Shown one piece after another: positions 2,357-47,624 of a DNA stretch of 47,672 nt. Every line of letters begins with the position of its first letter. Within the stretch, counting starts at the first letter, position 1. Below the pieces are notes generated by a model. It made no database searches. It was not told where the DNA came from and saw nothing but the letters and a program-made list of their open reading frames with translations. Source of the DNA: Acidimicrobiia bacterium (lineage in GTDB: Bacteria; Actinomycetota; Acidimicrobiia; IMCC26256; PALSA-555); NCBI GenBank assembly GCA_035650535.1, contig DASRHL010000174.1, positions 1 through 47,672 of the forward strand, given 5' to 3'. A program made the translations under genes and the position numbers.

Positions 2357-3733
2357 ATGGACGCGACCGACATCCCGGCCCTGGTCAAAGGGCTGCGGGC
2401 GAGCTTCGACGCCGGGCGGAGCCGGCCGCTCGAGTGGCGCCGCGCGCAGCTCGACCGGATGCGCACGATGCTGCGTGAGCAGGAGGGTGCGTTCCTCGGC
2501 GCGCTCGCGGCCGATCTGGGGAAGCCCGCGACCGAGGCGTACGCGGCCGACGTCGGCTTCCTCTACGCGGACCTCGACATGGCGCGGAGGAACCTCGGGC
2601 GGTGGACGAGACCGCGTCGGGTGCGCACGCCATTGGTCGTCCAGCCGGCGAAGGCGTACGTGGTGCACGAGCCGCTCGGCGTGGTGCTGGTGATCGGGCC
2701 GTGGAACTACCCGGTCCAGCTCGTGCTCGCGCCCCTCGTCGGCGCGATCGCGGGCGGGAACTGCGCGGTGCTGAAGCCGTCGGAAGTGGCACCGCGAACG
2801 TCGGAGGTGATCGCGCGCGTCGTCCCCCGCTACCTCGACCCCGACTGCGTCGCGGTGGTCGAGGGCGGGCCCGACGAGACCGCGACGCTGCTCGCCGAGC
2901 GCTTCGACCACATCTTCTACACGGGGAACGGGCGCGTCGCCCGCGTGGTCATGGAAGCGGCGGCGAAGCACCTGACGCCGGTCACGCTCGAGCTGGGCGG
3001 GAAGAGCCCGGTGATCGTCGACGACGACGTCGACCTCGACGTCGCGGCGCGCCGGATCGCCTGGGGCAAGTTCCTCAACGCGGGGCAGACGTGCATCGCG
3101 CCCGACTACGCGCTCGTCACGCGCAGCGTCGCGTCCGAGCTGATCGATCGCATCACGACGGCGATCCGCGGCTTCTACGGGCCGGACCCGAAGGCGAGCC
3201 CCGACTACGCCCGCATCGTGAACGACCGCCACTTCGAACGCGTCGTGCGCCTGCTCGACGGCGCCGAGATCGCGGTCGGGGGCGATCACGACGCCTCGGA
3301 GCGCTACATCGCACCGACCGTGCTGGCCGACGCCACGCCCGACATCCCGGCCATGCAGGAGGAGATCTTCGGGCCGGTGCTGCCCGTGCTCCCCGTCGAC
3401 GGCATCGACCACGCCGTCGAGCTCGTCAACGAGCGCGACCGCCCGCTCGCGCTCTACGTCTTCTCACGCCGCCGCGACGTGGCCCGCGACGTGATCGCCC
3501 GCACGTCGTCGGGGGGCGCGTGCGTGAACGCGACGATGTTCCACGTCGCGGTGCCGGCGCTGCCCTTCGGCGGTGTCGGCCCGAGCGGGATGGGCGCCTA
3601 CCACGGCCGTGCCGGGTTCGAGACGTTCAGTCACGCGAGGAGCGTGCTGACCCGCTCCACCCGTGTCGACCCGAAGATCGGGTACCCGCCGTACTCGCCC
3701 CTCAAGGACCGCCTCATCCGGCGGTTCCTCTGA
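2357..3733 (+). CDS. Class-3 (fatty/aromatic) NAD(P)+ aldehyde dehydrogenase (about 458 aa)
   Basis: This is the 3' part of the artefactual ORF 125..3733. ATG at 2357, preceded by GAGGAG. Motifs: GPWNYP, catalytic Glu in LELGGKSP, catalytic Cys in NAGQTCIAPDY, and EEIFGPVLP. Confidence 0.9.
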   Translation: MDATDIPALVKGLRASFDAGRSRPLEWRRAQLDRMRTMLREQEGAFLGALAADLGKPATEAYAADVGFLYADLDMARRNLGRWTRPRRVRTPLVVQPAKAYVVHEPLGVVLVIGPWNYPVQLVLAPLVGAIAGGNCAVLKPSEVAPRTSEVIARVVPRYLDPDCVAVVEGGPDETATLLAERFDHIFYTGNGRVARVVMEAAAKHLTPVTLELGGKSPVIVDDDVDLDVAARRIAWGKFLNAGQTCIAPDYALVTRSVASELIDRITTAIRGFYGPDPKASPDYARIVNDRHFERVVRLLDGAEIAVGGDHDASERYIAPTVLADATPDIPAMQEEIFGPVLPVLPVDGIDHAVELVNERDRPLALYVFSRRRDVARDVIARTSSGGACVNATMFHVAVPALPFGGVGPSGMGAYHGRAGFETFSHARSVLTRSTRVDPKIGYPPYSPLKDRLIRRFL

Positions 3734-43553: not shown

Positions 43554-45833
43554 TCACGCGTGCGAGCCTACGGCGCGACCCACGTCGACCCGGCCGTCCG
43601 GCGCGAGCGCCTCGGGAAGCGGCCGGGCGTGCACGACGAGCAACGCCTGGGTCGCGCGGGTCAGCGTGACGTAGAGCAGGCGCAGACCGGGCGGGTCGGG
43701 CCGCACGAGCTCGGCCGGCTCGACGACGATCACCTCGTCGAACTCGAGACCTTTCGCGTCCATCGCGGCAAGGACCGCCACCGGCGCGTCGAGCGCGTCC
43801 GCCGTCCCCGCGATCGCCCCGACGTCCGCCAGCTCCGCGACCAGTTCCGCGTGGAGGCGGGTCGGCGCGATGACCGCGACCGTGCCGTCGCGCGCGGTTG
43901 CGCGCCGCGCCGCGGCCGCGGCGGAGCGGACCAGGTCGTCGGCGGCGACCGGCTGGAAGCGCGGCTCACGACCCGCCGAGCGGACCGCCCGTGCGGGCCG
44001 GACGCCCGGCGCCGCAGCCGCGAGGACCCGGTCGGCGACGGCCATGATCTCGGCCGGGGTGCGGTAGTTGACCGAGAGCTCGACGACACGGGCACCCGCG
44101 TGCCCGGGCAGGTTCGCGAGGACGTCGTTCCATCCGGCGGGCGCGCCGGGGCGGCTGGCCTGGCCGAAGTCGCCCACGAGCGTCATCGACCCCGACGGGC
44201 ACCGCCGGGCGAGGACGCGCCACTGCATGGGCGAGAGGTCCTGTGCCTCGTCGACGAGGATGTGCCCGAACGTGCGCGGCTCGTCGGGCTCGTCGCCGGC
44301 GCCGCTGCCGTTGCTCCCCGCGTAGCGGGCGGCGATCTCGGCCCCGGTGACGAACCCGCCGACACCGAGGTCGGCGACCACCCGTGACGCGGCGTCGTCG
44401 GCGGACCGGCGCCGCGCCCGGCGCCGGCGGGGACGGGCCGACTCGGGCGGGCCGAGCAGCGCGTCGGCCTCGTCGATGAGCGCGAGATCGGGTTCGGTCC
44501 ACGCGACGTCGCGCACGTCCTTCGAGCGGGGCCGGTGGAGGAGCGCCTGCTCGTCGCGTGTCAGGACGCCGTCGGAGGCCGAGCGCACGAGCGCGGTGAA
44601 GCTGAACAGATCGTGGACGAGCTCGCCGCCGGTCAGGACCGGCCACATCCGTTCGAGCGCGGCCTGCACCTCGGGGAGACGACGGATGCGGGAGTCGAGC
44701 TCGCGGTCCCAGTCGGCGTCGTCGGGCGCGGCGGCACCCATCGCGCGCCGGTACTGCGTGCGCAGGTGCTCGACGACCGCGCGCACCACGAAGGGGCGGC
44801 GCTCGTTGTGGGTACCGCGCCGCGACCGGGTGCGGTCGACGATGCGCCGCGTCTCGCTCCGGCGGAGACGCAGGACGGTGCCGTCGAGGACGGTGACCAT
44901 GTCGCGCGGGAGGGGATGCTCGCGGTCCCGCACCGCCCGCCGGATCACCTCGGCCATGCGGGCGTCGCCCTTCAGGGCGGCGGCCGCCGGGCTGTCGTCG
45001 GCGCGGACGCGGTACTGGGGCTTCAGCCCGGCCGGGGTCGAGAGCTGCACGTCGGCCTCGCCGAGCGACGGGAGGACCTGGTCGATGTAGCGCAGGAAGA
45101 TCGTGTTCGGCCCGACGAGCAGGACGCCCTGCGACGCGAGCCGCTTCCGGTGCGTGTAGAGCAGATAGGCGGCGCGGTGCAGCGCCACCGCGGTCTTCCC
45201 GGTGCCCGGGCCGCCCGCCACGATGAGGACGCCGGCGATGTCGGCCCGGATCGCCTCGTCCTGCTCGACCTGGATCGTGGCGACGATGTCGCCCATGCGG
45301 CCGGTGCGGGCCCGCTCCAGGCTCGCCAGGAGCGCGCCCTCCCCCACCACGGTGAGCCCGGCGGCGCCGGCGGCGCCGGCGTCGAAGACCTCGTCGTCGA
45401 GCCCGATCAGCTCGCGGCCGTGGCCGGGGCGGGTGATGAAGTGGCGGCGGCGGACGACCCCCATGGGCGACACGCCGGTCGCCCGGTAGAACGGCTCGGC
45501 GACCGGGGCCCGCCAGTCGACCACCAGGGGGGCCTGCTCGTCGTCGAAGACCGCGATGCGCCCCACGTAGAACCGCCGGTCGGCGGTCTCGGCCCGGAGG
45601 TCGAGGCGCCCGAAACACAGGGGAGCCTCGCCGATGTCGAGGGCGGCGAGGCGGCGCCGGGTGAGCGCGTCGGCCGCGTCGCGCTCGAGCCGGGCCTGGT
45701 GGGTGCCTCCCTGACCCACCTCCGAGTACCCCTCGGCGACGCGGGCCGCGGCCCGGCGCATGGCGTCGAGGCGCGCGTAGGCGGCGTCGACGTACTGCTG
45801 CTCGGCGGCGAGCTCGGGGTGCTGATCGGCCAA
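43554..45833 (-). CDS. helD: HelD/HelR-like UvrD-family ATPase (RNA-polymerase-associated helicase IV type)
   Basis: ORF 43554..45833, TTG start. The N-terminal coiled region (AAEQQYVDAAYARLDAMRRAA), then VIVAGGPGTGKTAVALHRAAYLLY (Walker A), ILVDEAQDLSPMQW (Walker B), and the terminal YVTLTRATQ match actinobacterial HelD architecture. Confidence 0.8.
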   Translation of the reverse strand: MADQHPELAAEQQYVDAAYARLDAMRRAAARVAEGYSEVGQGGTHQARLERDAADALTRRRLAALDIGEAPLCFGRLDLRAETADRRFYVGRIAVFDDEQAPLVVDWRAPVAEPFYRATGVSPMGVVRRRHFITRPGHGRELIGLDDEVFDAGAAGAAGLTVVGEGALLASLERARTGRMGDIVATIQVEQDEAIRADIAGVLIVAGGPGTGKTAVALHRAAYLLYTHRKRLASQGVLLVGPNTIFLRYIDQVLPSLGEADVQLSTPAGLKPQYRVRADDSPAAAALKGDARMAEVIRRAVRDREHPLPRDMVTVLDGTVLRLRRSETRRIVDRTRSRRGTHNERRPFVVRAVVEHLRTQYRRAMGAAAPDDADWDRELDSRIRRLPEVQAALERMWPVLTGGELVHDLFSFTALVRSASDGVLTRDEQALLHRPRSKDVRDVAWTEPDLALIDEADALLGPPESARPRRRRARRRSADDAASRVVADLGVGGFVTGAEIAARYAGSNGSGAGDEPDEPRTFGHILVDEAQDLSPMQWRVLARRCPSGSMTLVGDFGQASRPGAPAGWNDVLANLPGHAGARVVELSVNYRTPAEIMAVADRVLAAAAPGVRPARAVRSAGREPRFQPVAADDLVRSAAAAARRATARDGTVAVIAPTRLHAELVAELADVGAIAGTADALDAPVAVLAAMDAKGLEFDEVIVVEPAELVRPDPPGLRLLYVTLTRATQALLVVHARPLPEALAPDGRVDVGRAVGSHA

Positions 45834-45927
45834 ACGGGGGTCCTGCTTCCCGAGGGGGAACAGTGCAGTCTAGTTGGCCGCTCGCCACCCCGATTCCCAC
45901 CCGGTCCTCCACCACGCCACGCCGCGC

Positions 45928-46551
45928 TCAGAGCTGCCGCGGGATCGTGACCTCCGTGGCGGCGTCGAGCAGCAGCACCGTCTCGCCGAGCACGAGCCCG
46001 CCCGCCTCGGCGAGGAGCCGGCGGCCGCCCAGGTTGGGAACGACCTCGCCGGGGCCACCGAGGGCGCGCTCGACCGAGCGGATCACGCCGCCGTGGGTGA
46101 CGACCAGGGCGGTCGCGCCGCCGGGAAGGGTGGCCGCGCACTCGGCCAGCGCGGCCAGGGCCCGGGCCGCGAGCCGGTCGTCGGGCTCGAAGCCGGGCGG
46201 GCGGCGCCCGTCGCGGAGCGCGCCGGGGTCGCGGGCCTCGATCTCGCGGCGGGTCAGGCCCGTCCACTCGCCCGCGTCGCGCTCGCGAAGCCGGGGGTCG
46301 CAGACCACGCCCGTCCGACCGTCCGCGAGCACGCTCGTCGCGATGATCTCCGCGGTCCGCACGGCGCGTTCGAGGTCCGACGAGAAGACCGCGTCGCACC
46401 CATGGAGCGTGCGGCCCGCCGCGGCAGCCTGCTGCTCGCCGAGCGCCGAGAGGGGCGGGTCCGCCTGGCCCTGCCAGCGGCCGTCGGCGTTCCACGTCGA
46501 CTGCCCGTGCCGGACGACGAGCAGGGCACGCGGGCTGGGCATCACCGGCAA
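45928..46551 (-). CDS. Histidine phosphatase family protein (phosphoglycerate-mutase-like)
   Basis: ORF 45928..46551. LLVVRHGQSTWN (RHG motif), SDLERAVRTAEI, and VVTHGGVIR. Confidence 0.85.
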   Translation of the reverse strand: MPVMPSPRALLVVRHGQSTWNADGRWQGQADPPLSALGEQQAAAAGRTLHGCDAVFSSDLERAVRTAEIIATSVLADGRTGVVCDPRLRERDAGEWTGLTRREIEARDPGALRDGRRPPGFEPDDRLAARALAALAECAATLPGGATALVVTHGGVIRSVERALGGPGEVVPNLGGRRLLAEAGGLVLGETVLLLDAATEVTIPRQL

Positions 46552-46577
46552 CGTAGCTTCCCGGTACAGTCCTGCCC

Positions 46578-47624
46578 GTGGAACCGGCGGTGCTGACCCT
46601 GGTCGCCGACGACGCGGTGCACGAGGTCGGGGCCGCCGTCGGCGCCGACGGCACGATCACGATCCGCCCCGCCGACCTCGCGCGGGCGACGGGCTGGGAG
46701 CTGCGCGACGAGGGCCTCTGCCGCCGCGACGTGTGCGTGCCGGTGCGCGATCGCGGGGCCCTGGCCGGCGACGCGGGGATCTCGCTCGGCGCGTTCGCCG
46801 GCGCGCTCCGCCGGGCGCTCGCGGTGGAGCCGGCGGCGCGTTTCGCCGTGCTCGGCGACGCCGCCGGCGGCGCGGCGCCGGGCGGCGAGCTCGTCGCGCC
46901 GGACTTCACGCTGCCCGACGTGGACGGGCGGCCGGTCTCGCTGGCCGACTTCGCGGGGCGCAAGCGGCTGCTCGTGTTCTGGTCGTCGTGGTGAGGCTGC
47001 CGCTGGGACCTGCCGGTCTGGCAGGAGCTGCACGAGGAGCTCGGACCGGCGGGCCTGGCGACGATCGCCGTCGCGCTCGACGAGGACGCCGACGCCGTGC
47101 GCCAATGGGCCGTCGACGAGCCGCCGGTGCCGCTCACGTACCCGGTGCTCGTCGACCGTGACCACGTGCTCGCCGAGTCGTACGGCGTCGTCAACGTCCC
47201 GACGACGGTGTGGATCGACGAGGCGGGCCGCATCGCCCGACCACCGGCCATCGCCCTGGCCGACGACAAGTTCAAGGAGTTCACCCGGATCGAGTCGGGC
47301 GCCCACCACGCGGCGCTCCGCCGCTGGGTCCGCGACGGCACGCCACCGATGACGGCCGCCGAGATCCGCGCGCACGCCGATCCCCCGACCGACGAGCTCC
47401 GCCTCGCCCGCGCCGAGCGTCGGCTCGCGATGTACCTGTTGCGCGCCGGAGCGCCTGACCTCGCCGCCGCGCACCTGGCCCGCGCGCTCGAGCTCGCGCC
47501 GATGGACTTCACCATCAACCGCGGCTCGATGCCGGTGCGCGGGCTCGATCCGTTCGGGCAGGAGTTCTTCGACTTCTGGCAACGCTGGGAGGACGCGGGC
47601 CGTCCCGGCTACGGCGCGGACTGA
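46578..47624 (+). CDS. ResA/TlpA-like thioredoxin-fold protein with an in-frame TGA (46992-46994) at the redox-active position. Candidate selenoprotein (348 aa including U).
   Basis: Track ORFs 46578..46994 and 47097..47624 are in the same frame, and the only stop between them is TGA 46992-46994. The read-through translation is [48 protein letters not shown]...[31 protein letters not shown]. This aligns with ResA (FWGTWCEPCKKEFP ... PLPTT), with the TGA at the first Cys. A SECIS-like hairpin follows. Confidence 0.7.
47009..47025 (+). promoter_or_regulatory. Bacterial SECIS-like stem-loop downstream of the in-frame UGA
   Basis: CCUGCC-GGUCU-GGCAGG is a 6-bp stem starting 15 nt after the UGA, with apical loop GGUCU. 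A further helix, G06-C28/G05-U29/U04-G30, is possible below a 2x2 internal loop. Confidence 0.6.

Follow-up and report, generated by a model that had tools for sequence, protein, structure and literature searches.

A conserved hairpin downstream of an in-frame UGA as a probable selenocysteine insertion sequence in a thiol-disulfide oxidoreductase gene of an Acidimicrobiia bacterium

Near the end of a contig of 47,672 nucleotides from an Acidimicrobiia bacterium (GCA_035650535.1, DASRHL010000174.1; this whole stretch is called the window here), two open reading frames (ORFs), 46578-46994 and 46995-47624, share one frame and are joined by a TGA, and a small hairpin with the loop GGUCU follows this codon. 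The locus raises the question whether the TGA ends a gene or is read as selenocysteine (Sec) with the help of the hairpin. In the initial annotation the hairpin was taken for a selenocysteine insertion sequence (SECIS), and this reading has been supported in our study: the TGA is present in 103 orthologous loci, the hairpin is the sole structure predicted by RNAalifold, its full signature is found in 103/103 Sec forms and 0/42 cysteine (Cys) forms, and its apex is shared with FdhA genes. From these comparisons the hairpin after the UGA is very probably a standard SelB-dependent bacterial SECIS.

Conservation of the hairpin in Sec and Cys forms

The features of the locus are as follows.

46578-47624, + strand: predicted selenoprotein gene, 348 codons long and interrupted by a single in-frame UGA, encoding a putative Prx-like/TlpA/ResA-like thiol-disulfide oxidoreductase
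46992-46994, + strand: UGA, putative Sec codon; TGA in 103 orthologous loci and TGC/TGT in 42
46998-47000, + strand: UGC, encoding the partner Cys in the redox motif U-G-C; this Cys is invariant in Sec and Cys forms
47009-47025, + strand: putative SECIS hairpin with a 6-bp stem (CCUGCC 47009-47014, GGCAGG 47020-47025) around the loop GGUCU (47015-47019)
47010-47014, + strand: CUGCC, the 5' arm of the core stem (5 bp, conserved; alignment columns 19-23); C-G to U-G are the sole changes in 69 distinct sequences
47015-47019, + strand: apical loop GGUCU, with G47016-U47017 as the presumed SelB contact and with G47015 and C47018 covarying as a pair
47020-47024, + strand: 3' arm of the core stem, GGCAG (alignment columns 29-33), invariant in 70 orthologues

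The UGA, both arms, the loop and a second CUGCC copy (46997-47001) lie in the sequence exactly where the initial annotation placed them, and, as stated there, the loop begins with nt 24 counted from the U of the UGA. The base of the hairpin is the 15th nt past the UGA, leaving a 14-nt spacer, and 20 nt separate the A of the UGA (46994) from the first loop base (47015); this distance is invariant, as the orthologue alignment is ungapped. A scan for perfect hairpins also found 47009-47025 with its 6-bp stem and 5-nt loop, and the free energy of the isolated 17-mer is -10.0 kcal/mol (-11.8 with flanks). Alone, without comparison, the hairpin is modestly unusual in the window: 6 of the 395 plus-strand TGAs (1.5%) in this 72% GC sequence have, 16-37 nt further on, a Watson-Crick hairpin of 6 bp whose loop contains GU, and the expectation from hairpin density is 0.019.

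For the comparison, 145 distinct orthologous loci were assembled from two scans of species-representative genomes, with the best 80-120 matches of each, and from individual protein look-ups. The active-site codon is TGA in 103 of the 145 loci (Sec forms) and TGC or TGT in the other 42 (Cys forms); in the first genome scan an in-frame TGA was present in 69 of 74 orthologous loci. The TGA forms were found in Acidimicrobiia and other Actinomycetota, Reyranella and other Alphaproteobacteria, Gammaproteobacteria, Binatia, Myxococcota, Thermodesulfobacteriota and Tepidiformaceae (Chloroflexota). The closest relative among the matches listed is L166 (GCA_936417725.1, CAKYVQ010000057.1), which has 77% identity over the C-terminal part and carries the same TGA and hairpin.

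The public annotation of L166 splits the gene at the TGA into two ORFs, 2548-2967 (139 aa) and 3001-3597 (198 aa). This agrees with an explanation in which the TGA is a true stop, produced by a nonsense mutation or lying between two genes, and the hairpin is coincidental; TGA is also the commonest real stop codon in the window, and 1.5% of the TGAs there have such a hairpin by chance. The same in-frame TGA is, however, found at the catalytic Cys position of 103 distinct loci in several phyla, and the GC content at third codon positions (0.93-0.95 in each of the two ORFs, about 0.95 past the TGA) as well as the protein conservation continue beyond it, with Pfam domains that cross the TGA. A true stop is the least credible of the explanations weighed here.

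Reading of the UGA as Sec is further connected with the structure that follows it. In alignment A1 of 70 TGA forms, which is ungapped, RNAalifold predicted a single helix, columns 19-23 with 29-33 around a 5-nt loop, and no other structure. Pairing was counted over the 69 distinct sequences, and all five pairs of the core stem 47010-47014/47020-47024 are formed in 69/69 (100% paired), whereas the outer pair 47009:47025 is formed in about half of the orthologues. Of the 6-bp stem described in the initial annotation, all six pairs are thus present in the window and just five (47010-47014 with 47020-47024) are conserved, the outermost being lineage-specific. In the loop, positions 1 and 4 form C:G in 61 and G:C in 8 of the distinct sequences, and no other combination was seen. 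A non-conserved sequence in TGA-carrying orthologues had been named as the outcome that would speak against a SECIS; instead, the stem and the loop signature are kept in 103/103 of them. The small hairpin is the one conserved structure downstream of the UGA.

The hairpin overlaps the L-P-V-W-Q codons and could be a by-product of coding, and hence the Cys forms were taken as the control. The full signature, i.e. the 5-bp stem with the loop N1-G-(U/G)-N4-U in which N1 and N4 are complementary, is present in 103/103 Sec forms and in 0/42 Cys forms. The loops of the Sec forms are of three types, GGUCU (39), CGUGU (61) and CGGGU (3); the second base is G in all of them, the third is U in 100 and G in 3, and positions 1 and 4 are complementary throughout. 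The Leu codon CTC is used in 17/42 Cys forms and in 0/103 Sec forms, and the Gln codon CAA in 6/42 and 0/103, respectively. The peptide LPVWQ is near-invariant with TGA only (98/103 Sec forms and 4/42 Cys forms), which means that the RNA constrains the protein. On a neighbour-joining tree calculated after removal of the motif columns, parsimony put the number of Sec/Cys switches at about 9 and that of N1:N4 swaps in the loop at 3 or more. The presence of the hairpin and its fine detail track the TGA codon through these switches. The RNA signature thereby follows the TGA repeatedly and acts as a constraint on synonymous sites and on the amino-acid sequence alike.

A few variants of the element were also observed. 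A Sec form found later, L219 (3352-3423, in a metagenome-assembled genome labelled Ferrithrix thermotolerans), lies outside the 103-form CAA count and has TTG...CAA, which forms a fully compensated U-A pair in GUUGCC-GGUCU-GGCAAC; this is the sole compensated U-A seen where the others have C-G or U-G. All 47 alphaproteobacterial Sec forms (within L024-L074, from Reyranella and others) have the rare Leu codon TTG after GAC, and the basal pair of their stem is thus a U-G wobble. Five Streptomyces Cys forms (L016-L020, about 3430-3444 of each locus) encode LPEWE as CTC CCC GAA/GAG TGG GAG, and CUCCC/GGGAG makes a perfect 5-bp hairpin at the SECIS stem position, in which a double change has turned G-C into C-G and the loop, CGAAU or CGAGU, lacks GU. 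The Streptomyces hairpin could be a codon-bias coincidence or a decayed SECIS; these loci form one clade and were counted as one event.

Alternative folds and points against a SECIS

A number of results weigh against the SECIS function of the hairpin. The stem is almost without double-compensatory change, and hence the strength of the evidence rests on the Sec/Cys contrast and not on classical covariation. Moreover, the bare 5-bp stem occurs in 13/42 Cys forms as well as in 103/103 Sec forms, and is partly given by the L-P-x-W-Q codons alone. Both results favour a coding by-product, in which L-P-V-W-Q written in high-GC preferred codons (CUG CCG GUC UGG CAG) is self-complementary and has no RNA role; L-P-x-W-Q is common even in Cys forms, Trp has one codon, and CAG and CTG are favoured. 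Yet the Cys forms with the same LPVWQ vary freely at the synonymous sites, through CTC, CAA, CCG-GTG and CCC-GTC, which the Sec forms never do (103/103). Their four distinct sequences are CTC CCG GTG TGG CAG, CTG CCG GTG TGG CAA, CTC CCG GTG TGG CAA and CTG CCC GTC TGG CAG, and each of them breaks the stem and/or the loop complementarity. The complementarity of loop positions 1 and 4 that is kept in Sec forms, and the LPVWQ frequencies with and without TGA, are likewise against a by-product, which is very unlikely to be the right explanation.

A further difficulty comes from the folding of the window sequence itself, in which a second structure competes with the small hairpin.

47001-47060, + strand: competing long hairpin, specific to the window sequence; it overlaps the SECIS arm and lies outside the conserved element

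The minimum free energy (MFE) fold of 46992-47060 is this long hairpin, at -41.6 kcal/mol (z = -3.4, 0/200 shuffles as stable), and it is also the centroid. The preferred fold has -42.8 kcal/mol as compared to -33.8 kcal/mol with the SECIS hairpin enforced, a cost of about 9, and when the first 15 nt are masked as ribosome-occupied the values are -29.8 and -21.5 kcal/mol, a cost of about 8. In free RNA the long hairpin would sequester the SECIS arm, and this may lower the efficiency unless SelB binding or unwinding by the ribosome shifts the equilibrium. These energies are in favour of another explanation, namely that the long hairpin is operative here, as an unusual SECIS or as a pausing/regulatory element, and that the small hairpin does not form. 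However, just 49.5% of the cells of the long hairpin are paired in the 69 sequences, the same as in slid and shuffled controls, and in L166 its 3' partner is not complementary and the MFE fold includes the small hairpin. In its apical loop, ACGA, neither position 1 nor position 2 is G, which places it outside the bacterial SECIS (bSECIS) model. Further, the gap of roughly 8 kcal/mol could plausibly be offset by SelB binding energy. The single-sequence MFE folds of six orthologues show a different structure each, with z-scores near 0, and single-sequence MFE is uninformative for this element. A thermodynamic preference for some other structure had been foreseen in the initial annotation as an argument against a SECIS; it does exist in the window sequence, but the alternative is not conserved and is absent in L166. 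That the long hairpin is operative here is slightly less probable even than a coding by-product.

An alternative proposed in the initial annotation, the pairing of the first CUGCC copy (46997-47001) with GGCAG, was also considered. It is 96% paired in the 69 sequences, yet non-pairing variants are tolerated at two positions and the pairing is not supported; with the UGA in the A site, this copy would be inside the ribosome.

The remaining points on the unfavourable side concern energy, machinery and annotation. The alphaproteobacterial hairpin, although invariant, is weak (-4 to -6 kcal/mol) and does not reach the energy threshold that bSECISearch usually applies. ARAGORN found no tRNA of any kind, tRNA-Sec included, in the 47.7-kb window, where no sel genes were found either, and no tRNA-Sec within 3 kb of 60 related loci. 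Pfam searches with 28 window ORFs gave common functions in metabolism, transport and regulation; selA, selB and selD were not among them, nor was another gene interrupted by TGA, and three further pairs of same-frame ORFs with a TGA between them are just neighbouring genes. Rfam gave no match with gathering thresholds on the whole window or with E <= 10 on 46900-47150, and it has no curated bacterial SECIS model covering the window element. Finally, the best NCBIfam match of the product, NF041054 'ResA-like WAxxUGC motif-containing protein' (WAxxUGC_long; E = 1.6e-63, profile positions 7-315 of 354), has a score of 215.2 bits with Cys substituted for Sec, as against a curated equivalog cut-off of 300.

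The putative selenoprotein, its mechanism and significance

The read-through product of 348 residues has the active site FWSSW-U-G-C-R, and in alignments the UGA at 46992-46994 falls on the position that the first CxxC Cys takes in classical TlpA-like proteins. AhpC-TSA (8e-21) and Redoxin (1e-17) are the Pfam domains that cross the UGA position, the orthologues of this redoxin are full length, and the start codon is provisionally the GTG at 46578. The W-A-x-x-U-G-C motif of the thioredoxin-fold domain is present as W-S-S-W-U-G-C, with Ser for Ala at the second position, and as WASWUGC in most orthologues. NF041054 scores of relatives (alphaproteobacterial and Binatia members and one Cys form) are 241-285 bits. 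The score of 215 is below the cut-off of 300, and therefore the window protein is placed outside the curated equivalog; by sequence it is homologous to NF041054 and represents a divergent actinobacterial (Acidimicrobiia-like) branch which the model does not formally capture.

The N-terminal extension has an invariant G-L-C-x4-C-x-P motif (46704-46733, residues about 43-52), kept in Sec and Cys forms in alignment A2, which may serve as an additional redox site or bind a metal. The gene order is kept in Acidimicrobiia-like genomes (43554-47624 of the window, L082 and L166), with a UvrD-like helicase (-), a histidine phosphatase (-) and the UGC-family gene (+), and the helicase/His-phosphatase neighbours of L166 match those of the window. 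A SGL (SMP-30/gluconolactonase) gene is next in the relatives and would fall just past the window end.

With the small hairpin as a SECIS, decoding may be envisaged as follows. When the UGA at 46992-46994 is in the A site, the mRNA at the entry channel would form the stem 47010-47014/47020-47024, and SelB, loaded with GTP and Sec-tRNASec, would bind the exposed G-U at 47016-47017 with its C-terminal winged-helix domains. The Sec-tRNA would in this way be tethered beside the A site, and the UGA would be read as selenocysteine and not recognised by release factor 2. The product would be a thioredoxin-fold oxidoreductase of 348 residues with a U-G-C selenenylsulfide redox centre. SelB binding, Sec insertion and the presence of selA, selB, selC and selD in this genome are presumed here from the conserved element.

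A wider proposal can be put forward tentatively, and we would stop short of calling it probable. The SECIS of this family may be a near-minimal 15-nt module within the L-P-V-W-Q codons, essentially invariant across at least 6 phyla, with a covarying N1:N4 loop pair that exposes just the G-U (and the 3' U), a feature that is not in the published consensus in this form, and the module may be pre-encoded in Cys forms. The Cys form L115, for instance, encodes LPAWQ as TTG CCG GCC TGG CAG, and the changes of GCC to GTC and of TGC to TGA would make a Sec form of it. Pre-encoding of this type would explain the about 9 Sec/Cys switches. The step in Cys-to-Sec evolution that is usually considered difficult is the acquisition of a SECIS by a coding sequence, and the family, if the proposal is true, would be a natural test case for this acquisition.

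This analysis indicates that a single selenoprotein of 348 residues is the proper annotation for the gene, whose counterpart in L166 is split in the public record. The presence of the selenoprotein would imply that the Acidimicrobiia-like host decodes UGA as selenocysteine. Specialists will find little surprise here, as the family was already listed in 2008 and the hairpin agrees with the standard model of SelB binding. The added value is modest: a clean natural experiment of 103 Sec against 42 Cys forms with about 9 switches, in which the synonymous sites are frozen and LPVWQ is constrained with TGA only. The covarying pair within the loop, the use of the GCC-GGUCU-GGC apex in another frame by FdhA genes, and the Cys forms that are one loop mutation and a TGC to TGA change away from a Sec form (L115) are further points of modest value.

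Comparison with known families and SECIS elements

In the GOS data, 46 selenoproteins and 855 Cys homologues are listed under 'Prx-like (UGC-containing)' (PMC2398784). The window protein has in common with this UGC-containing Prx-like/TlpA family (Zhang & Gladyshev GOS 2008; NF041054) the Sec-Gly-Cys site in W-A/S-x-W-U-G-C, the AhpC-TSA/redoxin fold and the architecture of ~350 aa with N- and C-terminal extensions. Enhydrobacter/Reyranella-type members too reach just 285 bits and are under the cut-off of 300. On these sequence features, the window gene is an unannotated member of the selenoprotein family listed since 2008.

In the bSECIS model of Zhang & Gladyshev, an upper stem of 4-16 bp carries a loop of 3-9 nt, at least one of the first two loop bases is G, usually with G or U after it, the distance from the UGA is 16-37 nt, and the free energy is <= -7.5 kcal/mol (as summarised in PMC13188914). 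The window hairpin, with a 5-nt loop on a 6-bp stem, the loop GGUCU, 20 nt and -10.0 kcal/mol, lies within all four constraints.

The initial annotation had compared the hairpin with the E. coli fdhF element, and its account of the latter is correct: TGACACGGCCCATCGGTTGCAGGTCTGCACC... is the start of the 46-mer TGACACGGCCCATCGGTTGCAGGTCTGCACCAATCGGTCGGTAATG, which has 100% identity in fdhF of 5419/5426 complete E. coli genomes. The minimal fdhF SECIS, GGUUGCAGGUCUGCACC, and the window hairpin both have an apical loop with GGUC, including the G-U that is essential in fdhF, and both are placed directly 3' of the Sec-UGA. The SelB determinants in fdhF are G23 and U24 (PMC8659212). The analogy is overstated. 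In fdhF an A-U pair closes the tetraloop, and SelB binding requires U17, which bulges out of the 5' arm, whereas the window hairpin has GGUC as part of a 5-nt loop and a perfectly paired stem with no bulge. The spacer between UGA and hairpin is 14 nt in the window and 11 nt in fdhF, and the G-U is at +25/+26 as compared to +23/+24, i.e. 2 nt further from the UGA.

A closer likeness is found in FdhA genes. In a genome scan with GTTGCCGGTCTGGCAAC, 75 of the 120 matches listed have an in-frame TGA with the loop start at exactly nt 22, and the context of these 75 is IDHCAR-U-HAPTVAGLATxFGSG of FdhA; one example matches TIGR01591 (formate dehydrogenase alpha) with 760 bits. The FdhA 17-mer matches (within L168-L287) come from Bacillota (Neobacillus, Priestia), Desulfobacterota, Spirochaetota, Nitrospirota and others, and are strikingly invariant across phyla. 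GGCGUUGCCGGUCUGGCAACGCC is reportedly the RNA crystallised with Moorella thermoacetica SelB WH3-4 (PDB 1WSU), an fdhA hairpin of which the FdhA 17-mer would be the core; this link to 1WSU is tentative. The 21-mer GCGTTGCCGGTCTGGCAACGC had zero genomic matches, and either its outer bases are non-natural or the sequence given for the RNA is inexact; a Moorella record is not among the 17-mer FdhA matches listed, and a full-text search for the sequence found none.

The FdhA SECIS (GUUGCC-GGUCU-GGCAAC type) and the window hairpin are identical in the apical GCC-GGUCU-GGC, the FdhA stem going on with U-A, and both are placed inside the coding sequence, directly downstream of an in-frame TGA and at a fixed distance. 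The loop starts at nt 22 from the U of the UGA in FdhA and at nt 24 in the window. The host proteins differ, and the apex is read as A-G-L in FdhA and as P-V-W in the window. Unlike the FdhA type, the UGC family also uses the CGUGU loop variant, and the full FdhA 17-mer GUUGCCGGUCUGGCAAC is present in its member L219.

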